The notes under the pieces: generated by a model
What the model saw: only the letters and a program-made list of their open reading frames with translations
Database searches by the model: none
Told to the model about the DNA's origin: nothing
UHGV virus genome: UHGV-1352889
Reading direction: 5' to 3' (one strand)
From: a virus
Length of the DNA stretch: 64,000 bases
Part shown: one piece after another, positions 3,741 to 58,042 of the stretch
Layout of the letters: each line of letters begins with the position of its first letter
Numbering within the stretch: position 1 is the stretch's first letter
Program-made: the position numbers and the translations under genes

Positions 3741-5721
3741 TCCTAAAAACATGAGCGTGATGGAGTTGGAAGAAGTGATTGCTATCTTCAATAGCTCCTA
3801 CTACAAAGAGGGGAAAACCCTTCTCCCTGACACGGTTTATGATACGCTGGTTGAAGAACTGCGTTCCCGTTCCCCGGAATCCAAGGAACTCGATAGTCTT
3901 GGGGACGACATACAACGGGGAGCCAAGACCTTCCGGCATCCTAATCCCGTGCTCTCCCTTGCCAAGATTCATGAGGGCAAGGACGGAATTGGTATGGACC
4001 AGCTTCGCGGCTGGATTGCCGGACGTGACGTCGTGGTTGAACCGAAGTACGATGGCCTCACCCTCGTTCTGTACATTGAAAAGGGACGGCTCGTCAAGGC
4101 CGTTACCCGTGGCAACGGAACCGAGGGGGAAGTAATCCCCCTTGATAAGGTTCTCTATATGGTCCCGCCAAGTTATGGCAATTACACGGGAGCTATCCGC
4201 GGGGAAGTGGTCGTAGCTAAGAGCGAAGAGGGGCGGGTGGAAAGCATGGGGTACTCCAACCTCCGCGCCTGTGCCGTTGGTCAACTCCGCAACAATAAGC
4301 TCAAGTGGTCTGACTGGCTCATTACCTTCATCCCGTTCGATGCAAGTCCCTTCCCGGAGGGTGTTGAATCCCGCATGGAACTGCATGGGTGGCTGATGGA
4401 AATGTTTGACCTCGTAACCCTCCCCAATGAATGGCCAGAAGGCGAAGCTCTGACAGATGAATACATCCGGGACATGGCCAAGTACCTGCGCGACGACATC
4501 GCATATCCTACTGATGGTATTGTGTTTAAGTTGAACCAGAAGAATGCCATTGCCGCGGCAGGGGAGGCTACCGCCCATCACCCGAAGGACGCGGTAGCCT
4601 TTAAGTTCAACCCGCAGGGAGTTGAAACTACCCTCCGAGATGTCATTTGGCAAGTAGGCAGAACCGGAGTTCTTACCCCGGTTGCTGTCTTCGATACGGT
4701 GAAGATTGGTGGAACCAACGTTTCCCGTGCCACCCTCTCCAACGTGGCTAATGCGGCCTCCTTCCACATTGGTGATACCGTGGAGGTGATTAAGGCAGGG
4801 GAGATTATTCCGTACATCCGCAAGGTTCGCGGCTGTGGCAATACGGTTTCCGTTGTCCCTCTGACCTGTCCCTGTTGCGGCTCCACGTTATCCTCTAGTG
4901 ACCTCAACATCTTCTGTACCAATCCGTTGTGCAGGGATAAGGTAGCGGCCAAGCTGGAATACGCATGCGGTAAGAATGCACTGGACATTGATGGCATGGG
5001 ACTTGTATTCTCACGTATGATTGCAGACAAACTGCTCGCCGGGGAGAATGATGTAGAGCCTCCGACCGCAGAAACTGCTTACCTCCACCACCCGTTCCTG
5101 CTTCTCATGTCCGGCACGATGGACAATCTCATCAACGGAATCCCCGGAACCCAAGGGTACAGAGGATTCCTTGAAATCGTGGAGGAACGGAAGCACCATG
5201 CAACCCTTGCTCAATGGATTACTGCGATGGAGATTCCCCATGTTGGTTGCACCCGTGCGGAAAGTCTCTCCTATGCTTACCCCAATCTCTACTCTTTCCT
5301 CACTCTCTTTCCCGAAGATTTAAGGAACAAGCGTCATGCGGAGTTCGGCCCCCTGATGACCGAGGCAATTCTGAATTACATGGAGACCGTGCCAACGTGG
5401 AACGAGATGACGGCAATGGTTATGACAGGAGATATTCCCAATGCCGAGGGCAATGTTCCCAAGAGCACCGCGTTGCGGGGAGTAAACTTCGTCATCACGG
5501 GAACCCTGTCCCAGCCTCGCCATGTATATAACCTGCTCGTTCAGGACATGGGAGGCACGGTCAAGGAGAACGTGTCGAGGAAGACCAACTACCTTGTTGT
5601 CGGTAAGGAACCGGGGGAGCACAAGCAAAAGATTGCGAGGCTCCACAAGATTCCTTCAATTACAGAAGAAGAATTCATGCAAATGATTAACCCTTCAATT
5701 ACAAATGAAAAAAATTCCTAA
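3727..5721 (+). CDS. ligA: NAD-dependent DNA ligase (LigA-like)
   Basis: N-terminal Ia-like region (ELEEVIAIFNSSYY…PDTVYDTL), adenylation KxDG motif (EPKYDGLTLVLY), Cys4 zinc finger (CPCCGST…CTNPLC), C-terminal BRCT-like segment (VNFVITGTL…YLVVGKEPG); AGGAAG 7 nt upstream of ATG 3727. Confidence 0.85.
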   Translation: MEIGNPKNMSVMELEEVIAIFNSSYYKEGKTLLPDTVYDTLVEELRSRSPESKELDSLGDDIQRGAKTFRHPNPVLSLAKIHEGKDGIGMDQLRGWIAGRDVVVEPKYDGLTLVLYIEKGRLVKAVTRGNGTEGEVIPLDKVLYMVPPSYGNYTGAIRGEVVVAKSEEGRVESMGYSNLRACAVGQLRNNKLKWSDWLITFIPFDASPFPEGVESRMELHGWLMEMFDLVTLPNEWPEGEALTDEYIRDMAKYLRDDIAYPTDGIVFKLNQKNAIAAAGEATAHHPKDAVAFKFNPQGVETTLRDVIWQVGRTGVLTPVAVFDTVKIGGTNVSRATLSNVANAASFHIGDTVEVIKAGEIIPYIRKVRGCGNTVSVVPLTCPCCGSTLSSSDLNIFCTNPLCRDKVAAKLEYACGKNALDIDGMGLVFSRMIADKLLAGENDVEPPTAETAYLHHPFLLLMSGTMDNLINGIPGTQGYRGFLEIVEERKHHATLAQWITAMEIPHVGCTRAESLSYAYPNLYSFLTLFPEDLRNKRHAEFGPLMTEAILNYMETVPTWNEMTAMVMTGDIPNAEGNVPKSTALRGVNFVITGTLSQPRHVYNLLVQDMGGTVKENVSRKTNYLVVGKEPGEHKQKIARLHKIPSITEEEFMQMINPSITNEKNS

Positions 5722-8933: not shown

Positions 8934-11900
8934 CTACTTCATCCGATTATGAATTTCCTCTGTACTCAATGCCCCATCAATCGGAATGCTACCCTTCTGC
9001 ATGAGGTTGATAATGAGTTGCTTCTGCTCTTCGATTAGGCGTTTGCCCTCGTCCGTGGTATTAGACTTCTGCAATTCACGGTTGAGCTTCGCGATAGCTT
9101 CACGTCCTGCTTGCGGACTAATGACGTAGGGCATGATGCCCTGCATGGCCGCGCCGTAGGTCTTGGCACTCATACCGGAACTCTCAATCACGGAGTCCAG
9201 AACTTCCGAACGGATGGACGGGTCAAGCATGTTTGTAATTTCCGTAACGAACCGGACACTATTGACTAGCTTGGTGAAATTCTTCACGGCATCCGCGGTT
9301 TCCACGGCTTCCATGAGTTCCACATCCATCCCGGATTCCATTCTCTTGTAGAAGTCCGGACGCAGAATGCTCATTCGCTTCGACTTAGTGACCGCCGCGT
9401 TGGCATTCTTTAACCCGGCGGCAAGGGCTTCGGTCAAATCCTTTGGACGACGGAGACCAGCACCGAACGTTTGCAACAAGTATGCCGCGGTACTCATGTC
9501 AGGTGTATCGCTAGCAAATTGTTTACCAGTCTTGACTGCCCAGCCGTAGAAGGGAATCTTTTTATTGGCAACCGTCGCAACTCGTTCAAGGGCTTGCCAT
9601 GTATGTCCACTGCCAAACGAGGGGTTCAGTCCTGCGGCCAACAGGATTGCGTTGCCGACTGCCGGGAGAACGTTGACGCTTTCATCACCGGAGAGGCTAT
9701 GCTTGTAATTGAAGTCTTCCTCATTAAACAATTCAGAAGCGGCATTCAGAAGGAGGGATTCTTCGAGCACCGTATTTTCCAGCAGGTTTTTCAGTTCGGC
9801 AACCTTGTTCATCCCCCACTTGTCCACATCCATATCCATGAAGAGGCTGGGCAGGGTTTTGGCTAACACCTTGATGGTCTTGAACGGGTTCATGTATTCA
9901 AGGTTCAAATACTCGAACTCATGCCGCTTCATATCTATGATGCCAATCAAGTCCCCGAACTTATCATAGTCAGGAATTAGCCCACTGTCTGCCAGCTTCC
10001 TCATGACTTCCGCGTCGTCAATGATTTTACGGTCATCGTCATCTCCCAAGACACTGGTGATAATCTGTCGGGCAAACAAAGAAGAGACCGCAGAGGTTGC
10101 AGAAATAGTTCCTACGGAACCAGCGGCGCGGAGGATAGCGCGTCCCAAGAGGTAAGCCCCCTCCTTCTTCATGCCGTTATTGATAGCCCACACACCATCT
10201 ACCCCTTCGCCTATGGCGTGGCCAAGGTTGTAGACTACGGACTGGGCGGTATGGTACTGGAACATGAAGAACGGAGCCATAACTATGTTCAGGATTTTCA
10301 CCCACGAAGGAGTACGCGAACCCGTGGGGAGCAAGCTCTTCACCATGTGGGCAGTATACCTATCCACATACGCATTCCAACTCTGGTCAGTCTGGCTCGC
10401 GTCAAGGAGTATCTGGTCCCGCGCATTGGGGTTGGCCTTGCCTTTCGCCCGTGCCAGTTGTACCTTTAATTGGGTGTCGGCAATCGCTCTCTGGTTAGTG
10501 AAGAGAACAATCTTGGCCGCCGCGTCCGGCAAGCCATAGGCGAAGGCCATCGTTTTGATGGGCCATGCTACCACTTTGCCCGCCATCTTGGCGGCATCCT
10601 TAGCCACCTCGCCCTTCGTCCGTTCCTGTTTCTCGTTCAGAGCTTCGGCGAGTTTGAAGAAGGAATCTTCATTCACTTCTTCGAATTCTCCTGCCATCTT
10701 ACTGAACTCGTCAGACTTCCAGACGTTGCGCAGGAACTCCCCTTGACCTGCGTCCAGCAGACCAAGCTCTTGCCAGTAGCGAATCTTCTCGTTGTACCTG
10801 TCTTCCGCGGCCAGCAGTCTATCCGCGGAAGCCTGTGAACCAAGGTCCTTGCCTTTGGACAACCGCCGCAACTTACGCAACTGAAGCCAGTCCCCGACAA
10901 GGTTTGCGATGTCTTTACTCCCCGTGAATGGAAGTGCACCCGCATGGGTCATTTGAGCTACTGTACCATATAAGTTACGTAACGTGGAATTAGGACTAGC
11001 TATTAAGACAGAAAGGTTAGCCAAGCTACCCGCCTTACTCCCCCATCCTTGACCCTTGCCGGACTTCTGCCAGTACTTGCGCACCTTCTTATAGTCGTCC
11101 GTCCGACTGTTCATGATGTCGTCGCTCGGCCTGTAGATGTGATAGATGGCGTCGGCTACATCCTTGTCGGCATATAATCCGTTCAACGCATTCTTCGTAT
11201 TCTTCAAGGAGATTTCCACCATGTCGGGGGTACGGTTCGTGCTAGTCGCGGGTACGACTACACCCTGTGCCTTGAGCACGGTGGCGTACTCGTCAGCAAG
11301 CAACTGGTTCACGGCAATCTTCGACTGCATGGATATGGTATTCTGCAATGTCCCAATGGCATCCCCAATGGTGAGGTCGCTAAGTTCATACATAGCTTTC
11401 CTCTGCCATTCGGGCAAGCGTTTCCGCTGGGCCAGCGCATCTTCATTCGTCCTCTTCTTGGTCAGCACTTCGTCGATGGCCTTCATGGCATCGCTCACCG
11501 CAAGACGGGAGAGTTCCGGATATTGCAACACTTTCAAGTCGGTAGCGGAGATGACGTTGCCCATATTGTTTGCCCTCATGAGAATGCCCGCCTGACCCCG
11601 GAGAAGATTGAGCGTCTTGTCCAGTCGTTCTGCGGCATTCATATTCGGAGCGTTCCATATCTGGTCGATGGCCGAAGTCGGGATAGTGGGGATGGCCTTG
11701 TTCACTTCGGAAGCCACGGATGCCGGGGATTCAAGGCCGCCGATTTTGTCGGCAATCGTGTTTCCCGGAAGGCTGGAGAAGACATCGGCGAGGAAACTAT
11801 CTCTGGCTTTCATGTCCAGAGTTTCTTTCATCTCTGCCATCTTTGACTTCGTGCGATAGTCTGCCTGTGCTATCATGCTCATGGCCTTGTTATACATGGC

Positions 11901-14900
11901 ACTGATGTTGTGGCCGTCCCGCAGGTCCGCAAGCATTTGAACCCTGCCGAAGTTGTTCTGAATGAAGTCAAGAATTTCTCTGGTCCTGTAGTTCTTGGCT
12001 ACACCTTCGAACAGGAGTTTATAATTCGAAGAGGCTCCCGGGGGAGCTGACACCAGCGGAAGTTTCAACTCGTCATGGAACGCGGCCAATGCTTGCATGT
12101 TGTCCAGCACTTGGCTTATGTTTTCGGACAACTCTGTCTGGTGCGCTTCGGCATGAGCGATTGCGGCTTCCTGCAACAACTTCGTCAGGCCATCATACTT
12201 CTGTGCCATCTCCCCGTTGGGATGTGCAATGATGTCCTTCATCGTCCGGGTGAAGTCTCCGGCATGGCGACCTACGGCCATGTAGGTGCGATGAAGATAA
12301 TTCATCTCCGCGGCGTTGTTAGCCATACGGCTATCCCCAATGAGCTTGGCAATAGAGATTTGCGTCGCGGCAATTTCTTTACGGGAATCGGCGATGACAT
12401 TGTAGACCAGTTGACCTACAACCCCTTGTGACAGAAGCCATTGTTCCGCGGCATCCCGCTTAGCCATATACTCTGCCTGTTTCTGACGGCGTGCATCGAG
12501 GATAGCGTTGTCCCGTTTCAGCCACACGGAACCAGCAGGAGTAGTTACGCCAGCACGAGTTACACCCGCTCTCTTTGTTGCAGCGTAGAAATCATCGTTG
12601 GCTTCCCGGATGATTTGTTTAGCTTCGGCCCGTGCCCTAGAGATGTCCTGAATCATAGGAGCAATGGCGGGGTGGTTTGTACTCTCCGCATAGAGGTAGT
12701 CGTTGCGAAGGTTGGACCACCTGTCCAGAAGTTCATCCATAGAGAAGGGACTGTCCACCTCGTTAATCATATCCGCGAGGTAGTTCTGCGTATCGCGGGC
12801 AAGACTAAAGTAGGAGGTTTCCAGATTGGCATCCCCTGTCGCGGAGATACGAGAGCCAAGGTCGGAGAGCGATTTGTGAATCTGCTGGGAGAGCATGGGG
12901 AGAGCCACCGTCTTGTCCAGCATGGCCCCATATCCCTTGACGCTCATGTCTTTAATCCGGCGCATCATGTCATTGATTTCCAATCGCCCTTCACTATTAA
13001 GCGCAAGGGAGTTGGCTAGACGCACCGCTTCCGCGTGCCTATTGACGGCATCGGTAACGGTCTTCTTAGCCAACGCGATACGGAAGTCGCGGGTCTGTTC
13101 GTGCTGGCGAACTTCTGCTTGGGCCTCTGCGTTAATGCGTGCAACGGTTTCAGGGTCAATGTCGTTGTCCATATTCCCCGACATGTCGAGAATGGACTTG
13201 CTCCATTTCTTTCGCGTGGCGGCATCCCAGCCCAGACTATCCGCACGGCGTTGAAGCATATCACCGATTTTGTCGATGCGTTTAATACTGCGCTCGTATG
13301 CCGCATTCACGTTGGTCCTTTGTTCCAGCACAATCAGCTTCTGTTCCTCGGACTTAACATTGATGCCAGCTTTGTCCCAGCCCTTAGACACGCCTTGCCA
13401 TACGTTCTTAACACTAGTCACCCAGTTCCCGGCATTCGTACCGATAATCTCTGCACCCAGACCGAAGGACAGTCTTTGGGTCATGTCGGTCTCATAGGCC
13501 AACGGGTTGAAATAATCTACCTCATGGCTCATGGTGTAGTCCGTATCGTCTACTTTCCATGATGGGGTGCGAGGCATATCGAACCACTTGCCGGGGGTTA
13601 TGTCCGCGACGCGGTCCACATAGGAATCCCATTCAGCCGCATTCTTGGCGGCGGTGGTTCCGTCCATGTCGTCCGCAGTTTGCCGCACATCTCTAATCAA
13701 ATCCTTAAGCCATTCAATGAGGCGCACGTGAACGGGTCTCCTGCCCCCAGCCGCTTCGGCATAGCGAGCCAAATCCGTGAGGGTTACATTGTCTCCGCTC
13801 ACCTCCGCAATCATGAAGTTCATGACAGGATTGGAGAACGCAACACTGGCAAATTCGTCCGGGCCACGGAGACCATAGTTGAGGTCGGAGGCAAGCGCGG
13901 CGATGGCATTCATCTCATTGATGTCCACGCTAGCTTCATACATAGCGGTGAGGCTATCAATGAATTGATTATAGTTCTCCGCAACTGCGCTTCTAATCTT
14001 GTCCATCCGCTGGGAGTAGTCCGCGTTAGTGGCACGAAGATGACGGTCAATGAGGTGGATGGCCTCATGCAGTACTGTTCCCGTTACGCTCTCAATCGCA
14101 TTGTCCCGGTCCATGTACAGGTCAATGACACCACCGACAAGCTTCCCGTCTGTTCCGTTCATGTAGGTGATACTGGCGGGGGAGGCTATATTGGCAGGAG
14201 CATTGGTGGCTCGGATAGCCACGTCCAAACCAGCGGCATGCAATGCGCGGAGCACTCCGTCAATGGCCGCGGCCTGTGCAGGAGATGCCTTGACGCGAAG
14301 GTCCGAAAGGATGCCGTAGGCATTTACGCCCGTCCCGTCAGAGGGGAGATTGAGAGCGGAGACCCTATCCCCCCACTTGGTGCTGGGTGTCCCTCCCTCG
14401 CCCATGTTGTACATGCTTGCGTGCGGAGAGACGACAATGGTTTCTCCCGTGTTGCTCGTAACCAGCGGGGCATTAATCCCGGTCATCTCGTTCAAGGAGA
14501 CGAGCTTGGTTCCGCGGTCAAGAGGTGAACCGGATGAAAGCCATGCCCCAGTGTTGGGGTCGAACGAAGTAATGGCGGCATCCAAGGTATCCACGGTTTC
14601 CACGGCTTCGGGGGTAACTACTCCCGTATCTACCATGTTAGTGACGGAGGCAATGGCTTGGTCCCTCTCCTTCCGTGCCGTGAGTTCCGGGGATTCCGTG
14701 GTAGCCGTGGGTTCCGTGGGCACCGGGGATTCCTTGGTAGCCGCGGCTTCCGTCAATCCGTTAATAACGTTAATGGCGGCATCGAGGTCTTCATCTCCTG
14801 TAGTAAGGATGGACAGGTCATCGTCTACTTCGATAACCTGAACCCGGTCTCCCATAGCATCAAGGGCTTCCGAAAGCATGGTGCGCATGGTGTCGAGGTT

Positions 14901-17900
14901 TTCCTTATTTGGGAATGACAGGGTATTGGGCAGGTCGTTAATGGCTTCTGCCATGAATGAGCTTGCCGCGGCACTGCCCTCGTAGGTATATATTTCGGAG
15001 GCCCGTTCCACTAGGTTGCGGAACTGGGTGAAATTGCTGATGCCCATACGGGTTGCGCCTTCCACCCATGCCTTCCGGGTTTCGTCGGAGACAACCAGAC
15101 TTTCATGGGCAATGGATTTGTCCACCCATTCGCGGGCAACTTCCGCGGCATCCCCCTTCTCCCCGGCAATCTCGATAACCTTCTTTCCGGTTTCTACCAA
15201 GCTTTCCGGCACATTGTTTTTGGTAATGGCTTTGCCCGTTTCCTCGATGATGTTGCTCGCATCTTTCGTAATATCCGGTAGCATGGAAGTAGCATCCTTT
15301 ACATCAAGGGTGGGAACGGCTTCGGTTTGGAAACGTATGTTCCCTTCCCCAGCTAACTGGCTACCAACGTAGCCGCCGATACCCCCAAGGAAAGCAATCT
15401 TTATAGCACCGCTAATCACTTGGTCAGTAGTGGCAATAGAGGATTCGGAGATTTCTCCGTTCTTCACCAGTTCAGTAAATGCCCATTCTTGGAATTCGTC
15501 TGCCAGTTCTTCGGTGGCTCCTTCCACTGCGGCCTTGCTCGTGCTGTACAGATAGGAAGCAACGGAAAGCGTCTTCTCCTTGGTAGTCATTTCAGACCAC
15601 GGCTTGCTTCTCCATCTGGCCATCTTCTGTTCAAGGGTTTGGAATGGAGATTGACCGCGAAGGTTTTTAGCTCCAACAATCTTACGCATGTAGGAATCCA
15701 CACCTGCGCGGTTGTTGATAAGCGTACTGCCAGCGGAGACCAGAGCCGCACCAAAGAGGGCACGCCTACTGGCAATGCTCTGTGCCCGGTTCGTGTTCTC
15801 GGCAGTCGGTTCCTTCCCTTCCATCTCCCTGTCATAAATGGTATAGAAGATGTCGGAGTAAGCATTCGGTGCAACCTGCGAGATGATGGTAAGGTTTACC
15901 CCAGCACCAGCTCCCGCCCTTTCAAGGCTCAAGGCCGCAAGGTTATTAAGGTTACGCTGAATAGTTCCACTCAAACGTCCCGCCAATCCCGGACGGGCGG
16001 CAGGGACCAAAGCTTCTGCCCGCTTCGCTACGACGTTAGCCGTTGCCCTCGCGAACTTGGTCAGAGCGGTACGTTCCAATGCGCGGCCAGCAAGGCCACC
16101 GATTTTACCAGCCCCCGCGGTTGCCACCATTTGGTAGCCGAGGTTAGCGATTTCCGCAGTATAGTCTGCAAGGATGTTGCCTCGAACAAGTTCAGCTTCC
16201 GCTTCCTGTTTTTTGTTCAGCTGGTCCCAGAGGGTGCGGGTATGTTCCATCGCCGCACGACTGCCGACTGCATTCTGCGCAAAGAGAAGAGCACCATAGG
16301 CGGCCCCTGTCCCAAGGTCGATGGCTTTGTGCGTGCCTATCTGGAACCCACGGAGAATAGGATTGATGTGAGCCTGTCCTTTCTCCTGCCACGCGGAGAG
16401 AATGTCCTCGTCGCTCTTGCCCGCTTCCTTCTGTTCATTGTAGAAATTCTTGAAGGAAAGGTACTTGTCCAGATACTTCATGCTTTCGGTCCAGATAGGG
16501 TAGACCCGCATGCCGAAACCAAGCCACGTATCATGGAGCGTTCCCAGCGTTTCATCTAATGCAATGTTGTCCTTCACAAGTTCCTGTGCGGATTTCGTGC
16601 GGAGGTTCTGGAACTTTTCAATGGTGCGATTAATGAGACCTTCGTCCGCGCCGCTAGCACGGAGAGCCTCAATGCTCTTGTCCATCAGCTTGTTGTCGTA
16701 GAGAGCATTGGGGTTCAGTTCGAGAGTGGCGTTCGTATCAACTTCCTTGGTGTGCGGGTTGTACGCAAAGAGACTGCCACGGCCTACGCCCAAGTCACCC
16801 ATACGTGCGGCATGGGAGAGGGAGTTGAGGGCATCGCGAGTATTTTCAATATGGTATTGGGCCATGTATTCCTTCAACCGTTCGGGACCTACATCAAAAG
16901 AGGGACCCCCCAGTACGCCATACTCCCATGTGCCACGCCTCGTTCCCTTTCTCCACTCCATTGTACTTAATGGGTCAGAGGTCTTGCCCACACTATCTCC
17001 CGGCTGGAGGGTAAGCACATCCGCAATTTGTCCCCCCGTGCTTCGGTAGTTAGCCATTGCGCCCTTGACCGCATCCATGAGAGTGCCTCTCGGCGTAGCC
17101 TTGGCGACATAACCCTGAATCAGATTGGTTACTCCCGCTTGGTACAGGATGGATTTGGGAACCCCCGGAAACCTTGTAGCCACGGCTTCCAGTATAGCCT
17201 CACTCATGCCAATCTGTTCATCGGTCTCGAAGGTCAGGGGGCGGTCCTTCTTGCGACGAAGGTCCTTGGCAAGAACTTTGGCCCTTGCACGTATTGCGTC
17301 CATGTCAGCATTGGGGACTAAAGACAGAAGGGTAGAGGCCGCGGCTTCCGGATTGAGAATCGCGTCGCGAAGTTCGAGGTAGGGAAGGCCAGTGTAGTCT
17401 TCTTCGAGCCGACGTACCATTTTGTCTGCCGCCTCTATCTGTTCACGAATCCTATCCTCAACAGGCTTTTCTTTCTTTGAAGTTTGATGCCTGGGGATAT
17501 AGATATCACCGTTCCGGGAAAGGTAATCCCCGTAGTCGCGGACAAGCCGGAACATTTTGCTGGGAGACTTAGAGAGGTTGGCGAGTTCAGCAAAAACATT
17601 CCCAGTAAATGAAGGTGCTGAATCAGAGAATTCGCCAACGCCAAGCTCCCCCACGTTCGTCTGGCTGGGGGTTTTCTTCTGCACGTTCTCCGTCGAAGCG
17701 GCTCGGTGCTTATTATAGAGAGACTTAGCGGCACGATAGTTGTCAATGTCTTCGCGCCTAATCGTATTGATGATGCTTTCTATTTCCTCCGCAGTGTAAG
17801 CAATGGGTGCGCTCTCGATGGCTTCTGCTTTAGGTTTACCTGAATAATCTAGATGCGAGTTGAGGTAATCCTTCCGGGCCTTTTCCATTGTGCTGGCAAT

Positions 17901-18578
17901 GGATTTGGCCACCGCCTTTGCGTTACGGTTTCTGTCCGCGGCAATGGCGAGGAACTTTTCCGTTACGACGGGGTTCCCGTCCTCTCCCATGCCGAAGCCA
18001 AAGCGGGATAAGAATGCGGGTTGCTGGGGAGAAAGTTCGGAGGAAGAGACTGCGACGATGCCCGTGTTATTCGTAAGCTTTTTAATGGCGTCACTATCAC
18101 CACGAGCGGCGGCCTTCAAATCAACCCGCGCATCTTCTCCGCTGTCTAGGTAGTTCTTTATGTAGTCGATTCCCTCAAAGGTGAACCCACGGTTTCCTTT
18201 GTTCAAGACATCAACGTCAGCCTTTTCCGCGGCGGTTTTCCATTGTTGTTCCGTATGGGCGCGGGTTTTTGTTTCCCATTCTACGTTACGTGCGCGGTCT
18301 GCCTGTTCAATCTGTTTCTTCTGAAAGTCCTCAATGGACTTAGAGACATAGTCATCAAACTCCGCGGTAGCTCCTGCGGCTTTCTCCGCGTGGGTCTGTT
18401 TCTTTTCCGCTAACCTTTGCTCGCGGTCTAGTGCTTTCTGTGCTCTGTCTTCCTGTTTCTGTTTTTGCGTCTCTTGCCACGTGGCGTGCCTTTCTGCGGC
18501 TCGCTGTTCACGCGCGATACTGCTTGCCGACGTCGGAGCGAAGTCGGACATATTGGCGGTACTAAAGTCAATGGCCAT
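8934..18578 (-). CDS. giant multidomain virion-associated protein (3214 aa)
   Basis: Uninterrupted 9.6-kb ORF; coiled-coil/Ala-rich N-terminus; HExxH (VLHEAIHLI) mid-protein; no canonical RNAP DxDGD motif found by eye. Confidence 0.8.
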   Translation of the reverse strand: MAIDFSTANMSDFAPTSASSIAREQRAAERHATWQETQKQKQEDRAQKALDREQRLAEKKQTHAEKAAGATAEFDDYVSKSIEDFQKKQIEQADRARNVEWETKTRAHTEQQWKTAAEKADVDVLNKGNRGFTFEGIDYIKNYLDSGEDARVDLKAAARGDSDAIKKLTNNTGIVAVSSSELSPQQPAFLSRFGFGMGEDGNPVVTEKFLAIAADRNRNAKAVAKSIASTMEKARKDYLNSHLDYSGKPKAEAIESAPIAYTAEEIESIINTIRREDIDNYRAAKSLYNKHRAASTENVQKKTPSQTNVGELGVGEFSDSAPSFTGNVFAELANLSKSPSKMFRLVRDYGDYLSRNGDIYIPRHQTSKKEKPVEDRIREQIEAADKMVRRLEEDYTGLPYLELRDAILNPEAAASTLLSLVPNADMDAIRARAKVLAKDLRRKKDRPLTFETDEQIGMSEAILEAVATRFPGVPKSILYQAGVTNLIQGYVAKATPRGTLMDAVKGAMANYRSTGGQIADVLTLQPGDSVGKTSDPLSTMEWRKGTRRGTWEYGVLGGPSFDVGPERLKEYMAQYHIENTRDALNSLSHAARMGDLGVGRGSLFAYNPHTKEVDTNATLELNPNALYDNKLMDKSIEALRASGADEGLINRTIEKFQNLRTKSAQELVKDNIALDETLGTLHDTWLGFGMRVYPIWTESMKYLDKYLSFKNFYNEQKEAGKSDEDILSAWQEKGQAHINPILRGFQIGTHKAIDLGTGAAYGALLFAQNAVGSRAAMEHTRTLWDQLNKKQEAEAELVRGNILADYTAEIANLGYQMVATAGAGKIGGLAGRALERTALTKFARATANVVAKRAEALVPAARPGLAGRLSGTIQRNLNNLAALSLERAGAGAGVNLTIISQVAPNAYSDIFYTIYDREMEGKEPTAENTNRAQSIASRRALFGAALVSAGSTLINNRAGVDSYMRKIVGAKNLRGQSPFQTLEQKMARWRSKPWSEMTTKEKTLSVASYLYSTSKAAVEGATEELADEFQEWAFTELVKNGEISESSIATTDQVISGAIKIAFLGGIGGYVGSQLAGEGNIRFQTEAVPTLDVKDATSMLPDITKDASNIIEETGKAITKNNVPESLVETGKKVIEIAGEKGDAAEVAREWVDKSIAHESLVVSDETRKAWVEGATRMGISNFTQFRNLVERASEIYTYEGSAAASSFMAEAINDLPNTLSFPNKENLDTMRTMLSEALDAMGDRVQVIEVDDDLSILTTGDEDLDAAINVINGLTEAAATKESPVPTEPTATTESPELTARKERDQAIASVTNMVDTGVVTPEAVETVDTLDAAITSFDPNTGAWLSSGSPLDRGTKLVSLNEMTGINAPLVTSNTGETIVVSPHASMYNMGEGGTPSTKWGDRVSALNLPSDGTGVNAYGILSDLRVKASPAQAAAIDGVLRALHAAGLDVAIRATNAPANIASPASITYMNGTDGKLVGGVIDLYMDRDNAIESVTGTVLHEAIHLIDRHLRATNADYSQRMDKIRSAVAENYNQFIDSLTAMYEASVDINEMNAIAALASDLNYGLRGPDEFASVAFSNPVMNFMIAEVSGDNVTLTDLARYAEAAGGRRPVHVRLIEWLKDLIRDVRQTADDMDGTTAAKNAAEWDSYVDRVADITPGKWFDMPRTPSWKVDDTDYTMSHEVDYFNPLAYETDMTQRLSFGLGAEIIGTNAGNWVTSVKNVWQGVSKGWDKAGINVKSEEQKLIVLEQRTNVNAAYERSIKRIDKIGDMLQRRADSLGWDAATRKKWSKSILDMSGNMDNDIDPETVARINAEAQAEVRQHEQTRDFRIALAKKTVTDAVNRHAEAVRLANSLALNSEGRLEINDMMRRIKDMSVKGYGAMLDKTVALPMLSQQIHKSLSDLGSRISATGDANLETSYFSLARDTQNYLADMINEVDSPFSMDELLDRWSNLRNDYLYAESTNHPAIAPMIQDISRARAEAKQIIREANDDFYAATKRAGVTRAGVTTPAGSVWLKRDNAILDARRQKQAEYMAKRDAAEQWLLSQGVVGQLVYNVIADSRKEIAATQISIAKLIGDSRMANNAAEMNYLHRTYMAVGRHAGDFTRTMKDIIAHPNGEMAQKYDGLTKLLQEAAIAHAEAHQTELSENISQVLDNMQALAAFHDELKLPLVSAPPGASSNYKLLFEGVAKNYRTREILDFIQNNFGRVQMLADLRDGHNISAMYNKAMSMIAQADYRTKSKMAEMKETLDMKARDSFLADVFSSLPGNTIADKIGGLESPASVASEVNKAIPTIPTSAIDQIWNAPNMNAAERLDKTLNLLRGQAGILMRANNMGNVISATDLKVLQYPELSRLAVSDAMKAIDEVLTKKRTNEDALAQRKRLPEWQRKAMYELSDLTIGDAIGTLQNTISMQSKIAVNQLLADEYATVLKAQGVVVPATSTNRTPDMVEISLKNTKNALNGLYADKDVADAIYHIYRPSDDIMNSRTDDYKKVRKYWQKSGKGQGWGSKAGSLANLSVLIASPNSTLRNLYGTVAQMTHAGALPFTGSKDIANLVGDWLQLRKLRRLSKGKDLGSQASADRLLAAEDRYNEKIRYWQELGLLDAGQGEFLRNVWKSDEFSKMAGEFEEVNEDSFFKLAEALNEKQERTKGEVAKDAAKMAGKVVAWPIKTMAFAYGLPDAAAKIVLFTNQRAIADTQLKVQLARAKGKANPNARDQILLDASQTDQSWNAYVDRYTAHMVKSLLPTGSRTPSWVKILNIVMAPFFMFQYHTAQSVVYNLGHAIGEGVDGVWAINNGMKKEGAYLLGRAILRAAGSVGTISATSAVSSLFARQIITSVLGDDDDRKIIDDAEVMRKLADSGLIPDYDKFGDLIGIIDMKRHEFEYLNLEYMNPFKTIKVLAKTLPSLFMDMDVDKWGMNKVAELKNLLENTVLEESLLLNAASELFNEEDFNYKHSLSGDESVNVLPAVGNAILLAAGLNPSFGSGHTWQALERVATVANKKIPFYGWAVKTGKQFASDTPDMSTAAYLLQTFGAGLRRPKDLTEALAAGLKNANAAVTKSKRMSILRPDFYKRMESGMDVELMEAVETADAVKNFTKLVNSVRFVTEITNMLDPSIRSEVLDSVIESSGMSAKTYGAAMQGIMPYVISPQAGREAIAKLNRELQKSNTTDEGKRLIEEQKQLIINLMQKGSIPIDGALSTEEIHNRMK

Positions 18579-49392: not shown

Positions 49393-49393
49393 G

Positions 49394-49909: not shown

Positions 49910-50051
49910 AGGAGAATATATCCCACAAAGTCCAGAAGGTCAAGCACAAAAATAAGACGGCCACCCCGGTATGGGATGGCCGAATGGAACGTGCTCCTTT
50001 TTTACCCGCAATGCGGTGCTACGGGATAAACCCGTCAGAGCCGGGAGGGGG

Positions 50052-50819: not shown

Positions 50820-50928
50820 AGTATTCGTTTATTCTTGGTTTTGGGTTGAGGGCTTCTTTGGCGAGTGAACTACCCTCGGTAACTTCTCTGACGTGACTAT
50901 ATCACAAGTTCGTGAAATGTCAAGATGT

Positions 50929-52143
50929 TTATTTGATTTTGAGCAAAGCCATCGCGCTCGTCACTTCTTTCACTACTCCAAGTTCTTGAAGCTCTTCGAG
51001 TAAGGATTCCTTGGCTTCTTTCATCTCGGCACGTGTGGCTCCTTCAACTTTGTTTTTATCTACCACCATGTCAAGAAGCTTCGACACAGGGAGGCGGGAG
51101 ATGCTGTCCAGAATTTCCTCTGGGGAAATGTACTGCTCGACGTAGGCACGGAAGGCATCGTTGTCCACCTTTACGGTATTACCTCGCCGTGCATACTTCC
51201 ATCCGGGAACATCAACGCCGCAAGCGAAGAGGGTCTTGGCATAGTCCTTATGCACCTTGTTGGCCTCCGCGATAATGTTCGCAAAGGAAAGAAGGGAGCC
51301 AAGGGTTTCCGGGTTGTCCATCGCCGTACCGACGCTATCAATCATCCCTTCGGCTAGGTCCTTGTCCTTCAACACTTTGAGCGAGAAGTTACGGGCCATG
51401 CTAGTCACCTTCTTACACCGGGCGAGACGGGAACAGTAGGGGCAGACGTGCGGAGAGGATGAGTAAGCGTAGGGGTTCTCCGCGTCACGGCAATGGCGGG
51501 CAATGACTGCGGACATGTTTCCCCTTGCGGTAGCCTCGTCCATAGGGACTGCGGACATGTCGGTGGTGAACTTCGGCCCCTTACCGTCGCGGTAGAACGC
51601 CGCAATCTTCATGCTTTCGGTCTGGCTGGGTTGTACCACCGCGAGGATAATGCGCTTACATTCAGGGCGTTCTGCCATTTCCAGCAAACCATAGTAGATG
51701 AACTGGGTATTCTCGGCAGGGTCAGAGACAGGGACCATCCCCATTTTGTAGTCGATAATCATGGAAGTATCACCATGCCGGACAAGAACGTCAGCCGTTC
51801 CGGTTTGTGCTTCGTCGTCTGGGTTGAAGACGATTCCTTCAAACTTGTGTTCCGGGAGTACTTCTACCTTGTCCGTTTGTACCTCGGTTGCGAAGATGGA
51901 CATGAGCCTATCCACCATGTTGGATGCCGCAGTGTAGAGGATGTGCTCATGCTTGGTAAGAAGGGATTCTGGGTTCTTGGTTTCGAGGGCCGCGTGAACA
52001 CGGGTCCCAATGGCCGCCGGGGAGAAGTCATCCTCTTCTTCCTCTTTAGTCATGGGGCGTGGGACATATCCGGGACAGGTGGCGAGCAATGCCATCTTAC
52101 TCGGACTGTACTTGCTGTGAGTGTTGGTTTCGTTATAGGCCAT
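50929..52143 (-). CDS. PD-(D/E)xK nuclease, Cas4/RecB-like, with C-terminal Cys cluster (404 aa)
   Basis: MIIDYKMGM (RecB motif III hhDYK) and HCRDAE…VCPYCSRLARC Cys cluster typical of Cas4-like Fe-S nucleases. Confidence 0.55.
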   Translation of the reverse strand: MAYNETNTHSKYSPSKMALLATCPGYVPRPMTKEEEEDDFSPAAIGTRVHAALETKNPESLLTKHEHILYTAASNMVDRLMSIFATEVQTDKVEVLPEHKFEGIVFNPDDEAQTGTADVLVRHGDTSMIIDYKMGMVPVSDPAENTQFIYYGLLEMAERPECKRIILAVVQPSQTESMKIAAFYRDGKGPKFTTDMSAVPMDEATARGNMSAVIARHCRDAENPYAYSSSPHVCPYCSRLARCKKVTSMARNFSLKVLKDKDLAEGMIDSVGTAMDNPETLGSLLSFANIIAEANKVHKDYAKTLFACGVDVPGWKYARRGNTVKVDNDAFRAYVEQYISPEEILDSISRLPVSKLLDMVVDKNKVEGATRAEMKEAKESLLEELQELGVVKEVTSAMALLKIK

Positions 52144-54559
52144 TTGATGTTAATGCGTTAAAACAAATTTCTTTAATATTGAGTGATTGTATGATTCGTT
52201 CTTCCACTGTACCAGAGGCAGTCACAATGTACTGCAAGGTGTGTGACTTAGCACCAAGACGGGCAATGCGTCCTTGTGCCTGAACCAGATTAACCAGTGA
52301 AAAATCTAAGTTAATGAGAGATGCTCTAGGGTTACTTCCTGTCGTATCGTGAAGTGAAACTCCTGCGCCCCCTGCACTGATTTGTACTAAGGCTAATCTA
52401 TTAGTATTGTTTTGGAATTTAGTTATTTCATTGTCTCGGTCATTCCCTGTAACTCGTCCACTTATCTCGGAGTAAGAGATGTCCTTACCTGCTTCTTCGT
52501 TGATTAAGTTGCTTAGACTGTCTAGACTGTCTATGAACGCAAGGAAAATCACTACGCTATAGCCACTGTCTAAAAGTTCTACTGCTTTTTTAGAGAGGGC
52601 AGGAAGCTTAGCCAGTTCCGATTGCTGACGAAGCCGCAGGAGTTCCACGATAGCGGGAAGTTCGGTTCCCTTCTCGTTAGCCCGTTCGATGGACTGGTCC
52701 CATGATTTGTCCAGCTTGTCAAGTGCTTTCTGTAATTGTTTAATCTCTCTCATACCTTTCATGTCCACGTCCACGGACAGATATTCGATTCTATTCTCTG
52801 GGAAGAAAGTGTCAAGCTTTTCCTTGTCAATCTCTGTCATAACCCCCGCAGTGTAGAGCTTTTGTTTCAGGCTCTCCATCATGGCGTGGTTACGTGGGTT
52901 GAGCTTGAACTCAATGCCTCCCCAGAAACAGTCGGTGCATCCGTGCATGCGTGCCCAGAGCCAGAACCCGCGCCGGGGGTCTTGAATCCACTTGGCATAC
53001 GTCGCGGGGACGCTCATGTCGAGAGGGGAGATAAAAGGTGTGGCAGAGAGCATAATCGTCGGAAGTCCTTGATGAGCCGCGGTTAATGCCATTATGTTGC
53101 TCTGACTTCCATAGGTCTTGGCCTTGTGGCTTTCATCGAAAATGAGTAATGAGTTGTTAGGAAGATTCCATGTACCAAAAACAACACGAGACTTAGGAAT
53201 CTTTGTGGGGCGTTTGTAGTAGGGAGTACCGCCTCTGCGCACCTTCTCCCATGAGAGGACTTCTATATATTCTACTCCTTGTTGTTCGAAGGCTCGCTTC
53301 CATTGGGTCACGACGATGGCGGGACAGACTACTAACGGCTTGAGATTTAATGTGCTCGACGTTTCTATTGCGCATAAAGTATTGTGAGTAATTGTAAAAT
53401 CTCCGAGCAAGCAATGCGGTTCTTCCTTTAGAGTGAATCCGAAGTACTCTCCTTTTCCTATAGGCTCTAGCTTAAAACTATCTCCCACTCGCCCCATAGT
53501 TTCTCCCTGCCAAGCCTTCTGGGGAATTTGTTTTCTCTTTAGTCTTGTGGGGATTATATGGATAGGACCAGTTATAAGTATCAAGTAGCATTGCGACTTG
53601 GCATGGCCGTTCTGATGCCCCGCTTGCATTGAAGTTTTCAGGCCCAAGGAATTTGCTAAAAATTGAACTCCTTTCAGTATATCTTCATTAGTATTACTAA
53701 ATTGTAATACGTGTTTAGGAGCATAGTAACAACCATCTGTATCAATTAACCCTGCTAAAAGTTGGAGACGGTCTTCTCGACTTGCTGTTAAATAATTATG
53801 AAGGATTGTCTTATATGGAGTATCTCCTTGACATACTCTCCTAATTACTCGGTAGGGGGTTTCCGCATCTTCTTTGCCTTTAATGATATGCCATTGAGCA
53901 CATTGAGTGGACACGCCGTTGAAGTACGGTCCCGTTAATTTCCACCCCTCCTTACGGCAAGTTTCCTCCACTGCCTCTTTAATTTCATGGTCATTGACGT
54001 TAATTGATATTTTAGCTCCATACTCTCGGACGGAGGTCCCATCTCCCAAATAAGCTCCTACGAAATAAGGGTCCAACGGCAGTTCCTTTTCTTCAAAATC
54101 TACCGAAGCTGTCACGAGCCTTGCACGCTTCCTCAAAGTAGGGGCTATGGCCATAAACTCTGAAATTGTGTAGTCATGAAGTTTTCCCTGCACATTTCGC
54201 CAAAAAGGTCGTAAAGAAGGTTCTGCGGGACTTACCGCAAATTGAACCGTGAGAATATGAGAGGCATTACAGGTCCAAGGCTTACCACGTCTGGGAATGA
54301 CTTTGTACATTTCTTCCTCCCCGTGAGCTAAACTGGTAATTGTTCGAGGCTTGGAATCAGGTCCCATTAACTGGTCCCCTACTTTCAAGGTTTCTACCGG
54401 AACTATGGTTCCATCATATTTGAGCATAGGGGTCCCCTTCCCCCAGCATTTACCACATCCTGTGGCACTTGTGTTAATAGTATAGCCTTGAGTTTTAATG
54501 GCTTCTACCATCTCGTTTATACATTGTTGTTGCGGAGGGAAGGGAACTAGAGGTTTCAT
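52133..54559 (-). CDS. SF2 (SNF2/DEAD-like) helicase precursor interrupted by an intein in the Walker A motif
   Basis: Walker A split: …TSATGCGK|C…intein…HN|TLCAIE; DExH box LIFDESHKAKT; motif VI LVQAQGRIARLGAK; extein about 452 aa. Confidence 0.75.
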   Translation of the reverse strand: MKPLVPFPPQQQCINEMVEAIKTQGYTINTSATGCGKCWGKGTPMLKYDGTIVPVETLKVGDQLMGPDSKPRTITSLAHGEEEMYKVIPRRGKPWTCNASHILTVQFAVSPAEPSLRPFWRNVQGKLHDYTISEFMAIAPTLRKRARLVTASVDFEEKELPLDPYFVGAYLGDGTSVREYGAKISINVNDHEIKEAVEETCRKEGWKLTGPYFNGVSTQCAQWHIIKGKEDAETPYRVIRRVCQGDTPYKTILHNYLTASREDRLQLLAGLIDTDGCYYAPKHVLQFSNTNEDILKGVQFLANSLGLKTSMQAGHQNGHAKSQCYLILITGPIHIIPTRLKRKQIPQKAWQGETMGRVGDSFKLEPIGKGEYFGFTLKEEPHCLLGDFTITHNTLCAIETSSTLNLKPLVVCPAIVVTQWKRAFEQQGVEYIEVLSWEKVRRGGTPYYKRPTKIPKSRVVFGTWNLPNNSLLIFDESHKAKTYGSQSNIMALTAAHQGLPTIMLSATPFISPLDMSVPATYAKWIQDPRRGFWLWARMHGCTDCFWGGIEFKLNPRNHAMMESLKQKLYTAGVMTEIDKEKLDTFFPENRIEYLSVDVDMKGMREIKQLQKALDKLDKSWDQSIERANEKGTELPAIVELLRLRQQSELAKLPALSKKAVELLDSGYSVVIFLAFIDSLDSLSNLINEEAGKDISYSEISGRVTGNDRDNEITKFQNNTNRLALVQISAGGAGVSLHDTTGSNPRASLINLDFSLVNLVQAQGRIARLGAKSHTLQYIVTASGTVEERIIQSLNIKEICFNALTSNGL
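53381..54448 (-). mobile_element. intein (356 aa) with LAGLIDADG homing endonuclease domain
   Basis: Starts with Cys right after GCGK of the P-loop, ends ITHN followed by Thr (+1) that restores GKT; two LAGLIDADG motifs (GAYLGDGTS and LLAGLIDTDGCYY); boundaries verified by reverse-complementing 53381-53404 (GDFTITHN). Confidence 0.75.
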
Positions 54560-54614
54560 GTGTTTGAAATTTGTGATAGGTTTACTATAGTAATTCTCTA
54601 GTAAATGTCAATCA

Positions 54615-56534
54615 TTATTTTCTGTACTTGTCCATGATTTCAGGTTCGGCAAGGAGCGGAAGGGATGAAGCCCACTGCGGAGTTTCTTCCATTATCTGTT
54701 CGATGCGCTGGGCGTATTCCTCGGCATGGTCAGCCGGAACCATCACTACGGCTTCGTCATGCACGAGAAGGATAGGTTGCGCACCCTCTAATTCCTTGCA
54801 CAGGCGGTTGAACGTGCGGACCATGAGGTCACGTGCGATTGACTGGATGTTATTGTTGCTAAGGAGGTTAGTATTGACGATGGAGGACTTGTACCCGAAA
54901 TCGACGCAGGTTGCGAAATAGGGACGACGACCGTCCTTGGGTTGAATGAGTTTCTTGTAACAGTTACGATAATAGAGCTTCCGGCCAGAGGGAAGGGAGA
55001 GCGCGAAGCTATGGGAGGGGGTACGATAGCCGCGAGCCGCTAATGCGTCCAACTCTCTCCACCATGCTACCACTTCTGGGCTACGACTGCGGTACATGTC
55101 CACAATCGCTTGGCACTGGTCCCTGTCCATTCCGGGGTTCGAGCGTTGAATAGCCTTCCATCCAGCACTAAAGCCGCAAGCAAGTACCCCCGCCTTCACA
55201 TGCTGACGAAGGTCCGCTTGCCCCGGAGTTTCCTTGCAGTACTGTTTGAAGTCCTTGACATCCGCGGGGATGAGGCCCCAACCTTTCGCGTTAGCGGCAT
55301 AGATGTCCTTCTCACCAGCACGGAGGGTATCAAGAATTTTCTCCTGCCCGCAGAGCCAAGCGGTCAGACGTGCTTCAATCCCAGCCCAGTCACATACCAC
55401 GAGCTTATACCCTTCGGGTGCTTGAATGGCGTTGCGCTGGTTAAAGCCCAGAACGTCTTCACGGTTAAGCTGTTGCAGGTTGAGCTTATCTCCCCCGGCA
55501 GTCCAACGGCCCGTACTTGCGCCACAATAGGTCAGGGTGTAGGGGAGACGTTCTATCCCTTCATGGTCAGTATAGACGCGGGAAAGCATACGCTCGGTAA
55601 TGCTAATCATGCGGTTCACGCTCCTGTACTTCCCGATAAGAGTTACCCACGGAACGAGGTGGCCATACTCTTCCAGCCAGTCCGTAAAATCTTCGCTGGA
55701 CTTGCTGGTGGTTGTGGGGGGCGGGATGTTCAGTTCCTCGCACGCTCTACGTAGTTGGGGAATGGAGAGTTTCTTTTCAAGCGGGATAGCTTCCTTGTAT
55801 TCCTCCTGCGCCTGATGGAGTTTCTCCAATCCGTCAAGAAGATACTGGCGGGAAGTAGGAACTCCGCGCCATCCCATGATGCAGGTATTGAGCCAACAGG
55901 CGCGTTCATCTTCCGGCCAGAAGTTCTTCATCTTGTCCCACAAGGCGAGACAGTAGTAACTATCGCCCGCCACGTATTCCTTCATGTCGTCGGGGATGAC
56001 TTCCATCTTGCGGAAGTCAACACCTTCGGCTTTGGCTCGGACTTCCTTGCTAATCTCTACACCCCAAAGCTTTGCGACAATCTTGTCAAGAGAGCCATAG
56101 ATGGCGAGATAGTTGGAAGCGGCGCGGGAACAGAGCCATGCCTTGAAGGGCGGCTGGAAGCTTGGCGTGCACGGGATGCCCTTGGACCCCGGCGCGTGAA
56201 GACCGAAGAGGTAAACGGCATAGTCGAAGCTGGCGTTAAACGCGACGAGGGTTTTGTCCTTCGTAGTTTTCTCCCAGTCAAAATCCTTCGGATGTCCTAC
56301 CCAGCAATACTTCCCGTCATAGACGGACATGATGTATGCGTCGAACCGCGGGTCCCTACAATAGGAATGCGGGTCCATGAACTTGAGGGAATATTTCCCC
56401 TCATAATACGTTTCAAAGTCAACGGCAAGAGTATCGCCTGTGAGTTTGGTCTGGTCGTCTGTAATCTCCATTTCATACCCCGGAATGCGAGGCAGTGAAA
56501 ATGATATAGGGTTCTTATCTATTTCTTCGTGCAT
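54615..56534 (-). CDS. family A DNA polymerase with 3'-5' proofreading exonuclease (639 aa)
   Basis: Exo I LAVDFETY, Exo II LVAFNASFDYAV, Exo III YVAGDSYYCLAL; Pol motif A VVCDWAGIEARL, motif B RQHVKAGVLACGFSAGW, motif C LLVHDEAVV. Confidence 0.8.
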   Translation of the reverse strand: MHEEIDKNPISFSLPRIPGYEMEITDDQTKLTGDTLAVDFETYYEGKYSLKFMDPHSYCRDPRFDAYIMSVYDGKYCWVGHPKDFDWEKTTKDKTLVAFNASFDYAVYLFGLHAPGSKGIPCTPSFQPPFKAWLCSRAASNYLAIYGSLDKIVAKLWGVEISKEVRAKAEGVDFRKMEVIPDDMKEYVAGDSYYCLALWDKMKNFWPEDERACWLNTCIMGWRGVPTSRQYLLDGLEKLHQAQEEYKEAIPLEKKLSIPQLRRACEELNIPPPTTTSKSSEDFTDWLEEYGHLVPWVTLIGKYRSVNRMISITERMLSRVYTDHEGIERLPYTLTYCGASTGRWTAGGDKLNLQQLNREDVLGFNQRNAIQAPEGYKLVVCDWAGIEARLTAWLCGQEKILDTLRAGEKDIYAANAKGWGLIPADVKDFKQYCKETPGQADLRQHVKAGVLACGFSAGWKAIQRSNPGMDRDQCQAIVDMYRSRSPEVVAWWRELDALAARGYRTPSHSFALSLPSGRKLYYRNCYKKLIQPKDGRRPYFATCVDFGYKSSIVNTNLLSNNNIQSIARDLMVRTFNRLCKELEGAQPILLVHDEAVVMVPADHAEEYAQRIEQIMEETPQWASSLPLLAEPEIMDKYRK

Positions 56535-56917: not shown

Positions 56918-56920
56918 AGT

Positions 56921-57181
56921 TTAGAGTGATATGATTATGAAGAAGAGAGTGACCAATGTTGCGGAGAGGCCGAAGATATTGATGTTCATGTCCCGGTTAC
57001 TCCGTTTCAATAGATGTGTGATGGTGATGTAGATGAAGGACCATACCCACAGAACGATGAGGACGAGAATGAGCGAGAAGATGAGGGAGGCCAGTAGGGG
57101 CATACCATTGACCAGAAGGCCCATAAATAGGGAGAGGTAATAGATGCCCATGTAGGGAGATAATTCTGCTAGGTCTTTCAT
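56921..57181 (-). CDS. small membrane protein (87 aa from MKDLAE…; ORF opens at 57361)
   Basis: Two TM helices; the start chosen avoids overlap with the upstream membrane-protein gene (stop 57187-57189, ATG 57181). Confidence 0.4.
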   Translation of the reverse strand: MKDLAELSPYMGIYYLSLFMGLLVNGMPLLASLIFSLILVLIVLWVWSFIYITITHLLKRSNRDMNINIFGLSATLVTLFFIIISL

Positions 57182-57186
57182 GATGT

Positions 57187-57522: not shown

Positions 57523-57912
57523 TTAGAATTCGGCTTCATTGGCTTCCTGCACATCAATAATCCAGTCAAGACTGTCAATGCACTTGTTCAGCTGGTCACG
57601 CTTCTGGCTAAGCTCGTACCGGTCGCGGAGGTTCTGGTTCTGCGCCTTCAAGTTGGCGAGACGTTCATTGGACGGGCGTCCCAGCTTCTTGCCATTCTTG
57701 CTATAGCCGGGGCGGGGAGAATCCGCAACCGTGGTAACGTGCGTACTATTCATCAAGTTGCCAAGACCGTCAAGGAGATTGATGAGCTTGACAATGCGGT
57801 TGTGGTTATTGCGAAGGGACTTCAATTCCTCTTCGGCTTTTTCCACCTGTGAGCGAAGCTCGGATTCAAGAGCTTTCAACTCGGTAATCATGTTGTCGTC
57901 GGTCGTAGTCAT
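57523..57912 (-). CDS. coiled-coil protein (129 aa)
   Basis: Heptad-like N-terminus (ITELKALESELRSQVEKAEEELKSLRNN). Confidence 0.5.
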   Translation of the reverse strand: MTTTDDNMITELKALESELRSQVEKAEEELKSLRNNHNRIVKLINLLDGLGNLMNSTHVTTVADSPRPGYSKNGKKLGRPSNERLANLKAQNQNLRDRYELSQKRDQLNKCIDSLDWIIDVQEANEAEF

Positions 57913-58042
57913 GTTTATTGCTGGTTTGCTTTTTATTATTCTATGGGATTAGCGGAACGGGATTGGCCCCGCCCCGGAATCCCGGTGACGAGGCCAATGT
58001 ATCATAGCTTAGATTTTTGTCAAGAAGTTTTTAGAAGAAATT

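Follow-up and report, generated by a model that had tools for sequence, protein, structure and literature searches.

A predicted PI-SceI-type class 1 intein in the Walker A loop of a phage SF2 helicase, sporadically present among closely related uncultured phages

The 64,000-nucleotide stretch of DNA analysed here over its whole length (hereafter the window), which comes from the virus genome UHGV-1352889, encodes an 808-amino-acid (aa) helicase of superfamily 2 (SF2) interrupted by an in-frame insert between Lys37 and the Thr of motif I (SATGCGK/T; here and below, a slash marks a splice junction or insertion point). Based on its sequence and predicted fold, the insert can be assigned to the PI-SceI-type class 1 inteins, with a Hint splicing domain split by a two-motif LAGLIDADG homing endonuclease. 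We consider it very probable that class 1 protein splicing together with LAGLIDADG homing is the correct identity of the element, and infer its activity. A sequence-only reading of the same DNA had placed a 356-aa insert in this open reading frame (ORF) at positions 53381-54448. These coordinates proved to be exact, and we add that the gene lies on the minus strand; helicase residues 38-393 correspond to window positions 54448..53381, with 54448 the first and 53381 the last base of the intein. The precursor is built up as follows.

52133..54559, minus strand: ORF of the helicase precursor, 808 aa, SF2 with ResIII/DEAD and Helicase_C domains and a DESH box; composed of N-extein, intein and C-extein.
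54449..54559, minus strand: N-extein, 37 aa, with the motif I residues S-A-T-G-C-G-K at its C-terminus; GC content 40.5%.
53381..54448, minus strand: predicted class 1 intein, 356 aa, 1,068 nucleotides (nt), with Cys1, block B N61-A-S-H64 and H355-N356; GC content 43.8%.
54110..54448, minus strand: N-terminal part of the Hint splicing domain, intein residues 1-113, with blocks A and B; rich in beta-strands in the structural model.
53549..54088, minus strand: LAGLIDADG homing-endonuclease domain, intein residues ~121-300, recognised by Pfam, the PI-SceI alignment and fold matches.
54032..54070, minus strand: LAGLIDADG motif 1, with Asp136 as the equivalent of PI-SceI D218.
53732..53761, minus strand: LAGLIDADG motif 2, with Asp238 as the equivalent of PI-SceI D326.
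53381..53491, minus strand: C-terminal part of the Hint domain, intein residues ~320-356, with blocks F and G (EYFGFTL ... GDFTITHN).
52133..53380, minus strand: C-extein, 415 aa plus stop codon, starting with Thr+1 and carrying the DESH box and Helicase_C.

At the protein level the N-terminal junction reads ...TSATGCGK/CWGKGTPMLKYDG..., the intein opening with CWGKGTPML, and the C-terminal junction reads ...HCLLGDFTITHN/TLCAIETSS..., the intein ending in LLGDFTITHN. The two LAGLIDADG blocks are GAYLGDGTS at intein residues 131-139 and LLAGLIDTDGCYY at residues 230-242, and both motif sequences, YFVGAYLGD136G and LLAGLIDTD238G, carry the terminal acidic residue that aligns to its PI-SceI counterpart. 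Hence the starting Cys, the closing His-Asn before a Thr and the pair of LAGLIDADG blocks that had been read from the letters are all present in the ORF translation. Position +1 is occupied by the Thr of Walker A, which would also serve as the splice nucleophile.

When the insert is removed in silico, the remaining 452-aa protein displays motif I (SATGCGKT), motif II (FDESH) and Helicase_C, and because of these features we assign the spliced host protein to the SF2 helicases. The earlier expectation that excision would recreate a Walker A motif is borne out, as SATGCGKTL is an SF2 motif I (AxTGxGKT). In profile searches the unspliced ORF gave 18.4 bits for ResIII and 17.0 bits for DEAD, both sub-threshold, and 37.9 bits for Helicase_C; after splicing in silico the scores were 39.0 (cut-off 22.5), 28.6 (26) and 39.2 (23.5), respectively, and one ResIII/DEAD match covered residues 6-153, bridging the junction. 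PHROG 62 ('DNA helicase') matches the spliced protein at 2.4e-38. Further, the extein alignment to intein-less phage helicases that the sequence-only reading had proposed is gap-free: five close homologues of 451-454 aa, 65-80% identical, have no insert at the site and read through it as uninterrupted TGTGK/TL, and intein-less homologues share [ST]xTG[TCV]GKT[LV] at the insertion point. The spliced junction peptide would be ...SATGCGK-TLCAIETSSTLNLK and its DNA ...ACAGGATGTGGTAAA/ACTTTATGCGCAATAGAAACG...; the junction DNA of the intein-less allele of the type found in the related contig L002 is ...ACAGGTACGGGGAAG/ACATTGGTTACTATCGAAACC....

Conceivably, the insert could instead be a non-splicing domain kept permanently in the helicase, or a bacterial intein-like (BIL) domain. 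BIL and Hog-Hint domains have no homing endonuclease, usually have no canonical +1 nucleophile and sit in variable regions of non-conserved proteins. The insert departs from this description, for it combines a homing endonuclease with a canonical HN/T junction and occupies the most conserved motif of its host. In addition, with a segment between the Walker A Lys and Thr the protein could not bind ATP until that segment had been excised, all class 1 splicing residues are present and conserved, and close homologues of the helicase function without the insert. We give this explanation hardly any credence.

The assignment to the inteins is carried by profiles, homologues and fold alike. The search of Hint and LAGLIDADG profiles that the sequence-only reading had called for returned three Pfam families above their cut-offs, which are curated gathering thresholds: Hom_end_hint (PF05203; 57.9 bits, E=1.9e-15, cut-off 32.1), whose profile positions 1-78 cover residues 1-69 of the insert, Hom_end (PF05204; 32.8 bits, E=8e-8, cut-off 21.1) and LAGLIDADG_3 (PF14528; 31.8 bits, E=1.8e-7, cut-off 22.5). 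Among all Protein Data Bank (PDB) sequences the best match was PI-SceI (phmmer E=2.4e-14), aligned from Cys1 to the terminal His-Asn with both LAGLIDADG motifs included. The strength of these intein matches is far above chance. A search with the insert alone against 5.8 billion proteins found 43 relatives, all at most 38% identical to it, and in an alignment of 32 homologues C1, N61, H64, the LAGLIDADG Gly/Asp and N356 are invariant or nearly so, with C1, N61, H64 and N356 conserved in at least 90%. The consensus C-terminus of these homologues is GDFTVTHN, and the +1 residue across homologous inteins is T, S or C. An AlphaFold2 model of the intein, built on the homologue alignment, reached a mean predicted local confidence (pLDDT) of 90.6 and a predicted template-modelling score (pTM) of 0.89, with a short low-confidence loop at residues 79-86. 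In Foldseek, eleven PI-SceI chains rank first as its structural neighbours (E down to 1.4e-26, query-normalised TM score 0.78), followed by the TliVMA and PI-PfuI inteins, by Prp8 mini-inteins for the Hint part and by I-DmoI for the endonuclease part.

If the element acts as its residues predict, translation of the helicase gene would yield an 808-aa precursor that is presumably inactive because its ATP-binding loop is broken. Cys1 would undergo an N-S acyl shift, Thr+1, the very residue that coordinates Mg/ATP in the P-loop, would attack the thioester, and cyclisation of Asn356 would leave a 452-aa helicase with an intact SATGCGKT loop and a free 356-aa endonuclease. In a mixed infection the endonuclease could then cleave intein-less helicase alleles at their P-loop codons, and repair off the intein-bearing copy would transfer the intein together with flanking extein DNA. 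Both splicing and DNA cleavage by the endonuclease are predicted here from the sequence.

Indirect evidence on the endonuclease half of this scheme comes from its variation among phages. Seven intein-bearing protein variants, 97-100% identical, occur on several contigs, and all keep the catalytic residues. Between the inteins of the window and of allele L009 there are 64.5 synonymous and 15.5 non-synonymous differences, corresponding to a ratio of non-synonymous to synonymous divergence (dN/dS) of 0.056; for the endonuclease domain the ratio is 0.055-0.07 at a synonymous divergence (dS) of 0.34-0.48, and for the helicase C-extein it is 0.034. The endonuclease is thus constrained as strongly as the helicase itself, and, with dN/dS of ~0.06 among intein-bearing variants, it is maintained by purifying selection. 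The intein and its host gene have, moreover, diverged to different extents in different phage pairs. Synonymous divergence of intein vs. extein is 0.34 vs. 0.15 (~2.2-fold) between the window and L009, and 0.048 vs. 0.12 (~0.4-fold) between L008 and L009, a discordance significant by Fisher test on the counts (p=1.7e-4). This suggests that the intein has a genealogy separate from that of its host gene, which fits movement independent of the helicase.

These data bear on the possibility that the intein is splicing-competent but carries a dead homing endonuclease, having reached a late stage of the homing cycle at which it is fixed in the lineage and inherited only vertically. Such a state would agree with an intein 98 aa shorter than PI-SceI, with the reduced, low-confidence segment (residues 79-86) that stands in place of the DNA-recognition region of PI-SceI, and with a proportion of variable amino-acid positions of 17/356 in the intein vs. 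12/415 in the C-extein. Against this, both LAGLIDADG helices and the catalytic D136 and D238 are intact, the endonuclease domain shows the low dN/dS given above, the intein is sporadic rather than fixed among ~95% identical phages, and intein and extein divergences are discordant. We therefore regard a dead endonuclease as unlikely, and the combination of dN/dS, sporadic distribution and discordance favours an active enzyme.

Separately, a disrupted 5' end of the gene was considered on account of two 763-aa cluster members starting at intein residue 8. This candidate was rejected: L008 has the intact start MKPLVPFPP..., and because its start region is intact the 763-aa starts represent a gene-caller choice.

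The sporadic distribution is seen most clearly in L002, which encodes an 80%-identical intein-less helicase and is syntenic with the window at ~95% nucleotide identity over ~13 kb. All four IMG/VR relatives lack the intein. In the comparison with L002, a single block of identity collapse contains the intein: it runs from the stop codon of the neighbouring DNA polymerase gene (polA) through the N-extein (~64% identity) and the intein (absent) to ~320 nt beyond it (55-85%), after which identity returns to ~90% or more. The two edges of this block are the following.

54560..54614, minus strand: upstream spacer of 55 nt, 27% GC, from the polA stop codon to the helicase ATG; upstream edge of the putatively imported tract.
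53061..53380, minus strand: candidate co-conversion tract, ~320 nt just downstream of the intein; GC content 46.6%, 55-85% identity to L002.

The flanks are only 50-68% identical at the nucleotide level to all six intein-less relatives examined, and the N-extein, intein and downstream flank, at the GC contents listed, stand against 53% for polA and the exonuclease gene and 51% for the window. The 55-nt spacer and a different start region occur only in the intein-bearing alleles (window, L001, L008 and L009). The simplest interpretation is that homing or recombination brought in the 5' region of the intein-bearing helicase from a donor of lower GC, the flanks probably being co-converted, and it is from this pattern that we infer the direction and the recency of the transfer.

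The spacer also holds TTGACA-N16-TATAGT at 54611..54584, a near-consensus sigma-70-like promoter (11/12 matches), and the promoter-like sequence recurs at L001 9880-9907, L008 2817-2844 and L009 2949-2976. Possibly, the imported allele came with a promoter of its own.

The same distribution could in principle arise in the opposite way, with the intein ancestral to the phage group and the intein-less relatives derived by precise deletion instead of a recent import into the window lineage. The homing cycle is known to include precise loss of the intein, and the intein-less allele is far commoner (cluster P0001 has 564 member sequences). Precise deletion, however, predicts flanks of the intein-bearing type in intein-less alleles, and the flanks differ: the intein-less relatives (65% to 82% identity) all share TGTGKT and a compact arrangement with overlapping polA stop and helicase ATG, whereas only intein-bearing alleles have the spacer, flanks that are divergent and low in GC, and Cys at -3. 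We consider ancestral presence followed by loss very unlikely.

Several results nevertheless weigh against the overall interpretation of an active intein acquired by homing with co-conversion of its flanks. NCBIfam gave no intein-specific match above its cut-off, with an RNA polymerase A'' (intein-containing) model and rSAM_Rv_intein being sub-threshold and uninformative. A second divergent low-GC patch of ~300 nt (52257..52557, minus strand; GC 42.5%) lies in the C-extein ~800 nt beyond the intein; it has only 50-60% identity to L002 and to all other relatives, and a conserved stretch separates it from the intein flank. Because this patch shows the helicase gene to be mosaic in its own right, the divergence of the flanks need not all be due to co-conversion. 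The patch possibly comes from the same donor. Further, the search for a donor of intein and flanks was negative, with the closest inteins 35-38% identical and located in other host proteins, and no helicase in that search exceeded 50-68% nucleotide identity to the divergent flanks; the donor lineage is unsampled. Finally, the sampled intein-less alleles, as putative targets of the endonuclease, differ at many positions around the junction.

The Cys at -3 calls for separate consideration, since together with Cys1 of the intein it forms a CxxC motif across the N-terminal junction (C35-G36-K37-C38; window 54446..54457, minus strand). It is kept in all intein-bearing variants (TGCGK/C), and close intein-less relatives have Thr at this position. 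A disulfide between Cys35 and Cys1 might block the first splicing step until conditions become reducing and thereby delay activation of the helicase. There are precedents for such a switch: a Cys-3/Cys1 disulfide 'redox trap' governs splicing in an engineered Ssp DnaE intein and in the native Pyrococcus abyssi MoaA intein (reviewed in PMC3922620), and P-loop inteins of DnaB work as stress sensors (PMC6195587). On the other hand, Cys at -3 occurs in 0 of ~40 homologous inteins, the bacterial cytoplasm is reducing, and a single residue is thin evidence. A distant intein-less helicase, P0006, also has TGCGK, so Cys is just tolerated at a variable position of the P-loop. Keeping these points in mind, we find redox gating quite unlikely; if true, the redox state of the infected cell would determine whether this phage helicase matures, and a P-loop intein in a phage replication module would have been put to natural regulatory use.

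The helicase is adjoined by two genes.

54615..56534: family A DNA polymerase (polA), 639 aa.
50929..52143: PD-(D/E)XK/DUF2800 exonuclease.

A VapE-like primase/helicase lies upstream and the large terminase (TerL) downstream. The assembled contig to which the window belongs is ~70 kb long, and the relatives of the window are viral contigs in IMG/VR, 64-72 kb in length. The phage origin taken for granted in the sequence-only reading is confirmed by these relatives and by the presence of TerL, DNA polymerase A, primase/helicase and exonuclease. That reading had also called the helicase essential, which its position in the replication module, and this position only, would suggest. Megablast of window positions 45000-64000 against 50,697 phage records gave no match; this is an uncultured phage without a close GenBank relative. 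In the intein-less L002, the lengths of the primase (956 aa), polA (639 aa) and TerL (612 aa) are unchanged, and therefore no further intein polymorphism was seen in these genes. A tRNA scan found none.

Apart from the helicase, the window differs from the ~95% identical L002 in the primase-polA region, where ~190 nt at 56957..57156 are present in the window only and ~380 nt at 57531..57913 are replaced by unrelated sequence (~50% identity); these differences are small-ORF swaps between primase and polA. A 3,214-aa ORF at 8934..18578 (minus strand) has no Pfam match at E<=0.001, and other large ORFs (963, 756 and 715 aa) have no Pfam or PHROG match; presumably, these ORFs encode virion proteins, the phage group being uncharacterised. 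The window also encodes an NAD-dependent DNA ligase with adenylation, OB-fold and BRCT domains at 3676..5721 (plus strand), in a left arm transcribed opposite to the rest.

Labels in sequence databases appear to be affected by intein similarity. The intein alone matches PHROG families labelled 'terminase large subunit', and the RefSeq copies of two intein-containing helicases bear the same label, where the GenBank originals say 'helicase'. Records with apparently intein-distorted labels include NC_054652.1 and NC_020204.1 (Klebsiella phages), MT774379/NC_055872 (crAss-like cr118_1) and MW202426, together with PHROGs 36964, 19299 and 15. It appears that intein-intein similarity misleads the database labels of other phage genes, which is a warning for annotation.

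The finding is not new in kind, since the insertion site is published and GenBank already holds phage helicases with an intein at this position, one annotated as such. The commonest setting in which inteins occur is the Walker A loop of a replication ATPase, the intein carrying a LAGLIDADG endonuclease. What the window adds is a distinct intein, potentially useful to intein engineers, that is at most 38% identical to the others found and uses an uncommon Thr+1 nucleophile, and a clean comparative case of inter-phage homing, in which ~95% identical uncultured phages either have or lack the intein, whose flanks are apparently co-converted.

Considering known systems, PI-SceI of Saccharomyces cerevisiae VMA1 (PDB 1vde, 1ef0, 1lws) is built like the window intein, its Hint domain being split by a double-motif LAGLIDADG endonuclease, and the two share the Pfam families Hom_end_hint and Hom_end, both catalytic Asp residues, the NxxH of block B and a P-loop ATPase as host. 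They are nevertheless only ~20-23% identical, PI-SceI is longer (454 vs. 356 aa), the DNA-recognition region is much smaller in the window intein, and the +1 residue is Cys in PI-SceI and Thr here; the window intein, unlike PI-SceI, lies inside the Walker A motif of a phage SF2 helicase. Closer in situation are Salmonella phage St162 gp3 (MF158037, 'putative intein-containing helicase') and the D10-like helicase of Bacteroides phage BS162P1 (OP172706), both with an intein at the identical position (G-S-G-K/C...T-H-N/T) in a helicase gene that adjoins a DNA polymerase gene, as in the window. Their inteins have the blocks GPDSxPR, SHIL, LGDGT, LLAGLIDxxG, YYGFTL and GDFTVTHN of the window family, but they are ~30-35% identical to the window intein, come from other phage groups, and their helicase exteins are barely alignable with ours outside the motifs.

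More broadly, tblastn of GenBank phages found hundreds of records, many with one alignment running through N-extein, intein and C-extein, and relatives of the window intein occupy the Walker A loops of DnaB, RecA/RadA, AAA_24 and ResIII proteins at GK/[TS] or G/[SCT]GK. The K/T point has been described as the 'classic' P-loop insertion site, common in bacteria, archaea and phages and found in mycobacteriophage terminases (Kelley et al. 2016, PMC5050341), while SNF2/HepA SF2 helicases are among the top intein hosts in a survey that emphasised P-loop clustering (Novikova et al. 2016, PMC4760082). The window junction GCGK/C...HN/T, with the Walker A Lys before the intein and Thr at +1, corresponds to the definition of this classic site. 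As in the window, the inteins of mycobacteriophage TerL1-a, DnaB site b (Msm DnaBi1), MCM site a, RFC-S site a and Pho RadA lie between or next to the Walker A Lys and the Thr/Ser that acts as the +1 nucleophile (PMC5050341, PMC4760082, PMC6195587); their hosts are different, however, and some of them are mini-inteins or class 3 inteins (DnaBi1), in contrast to the full-size, predicted class 1 intein of the window.

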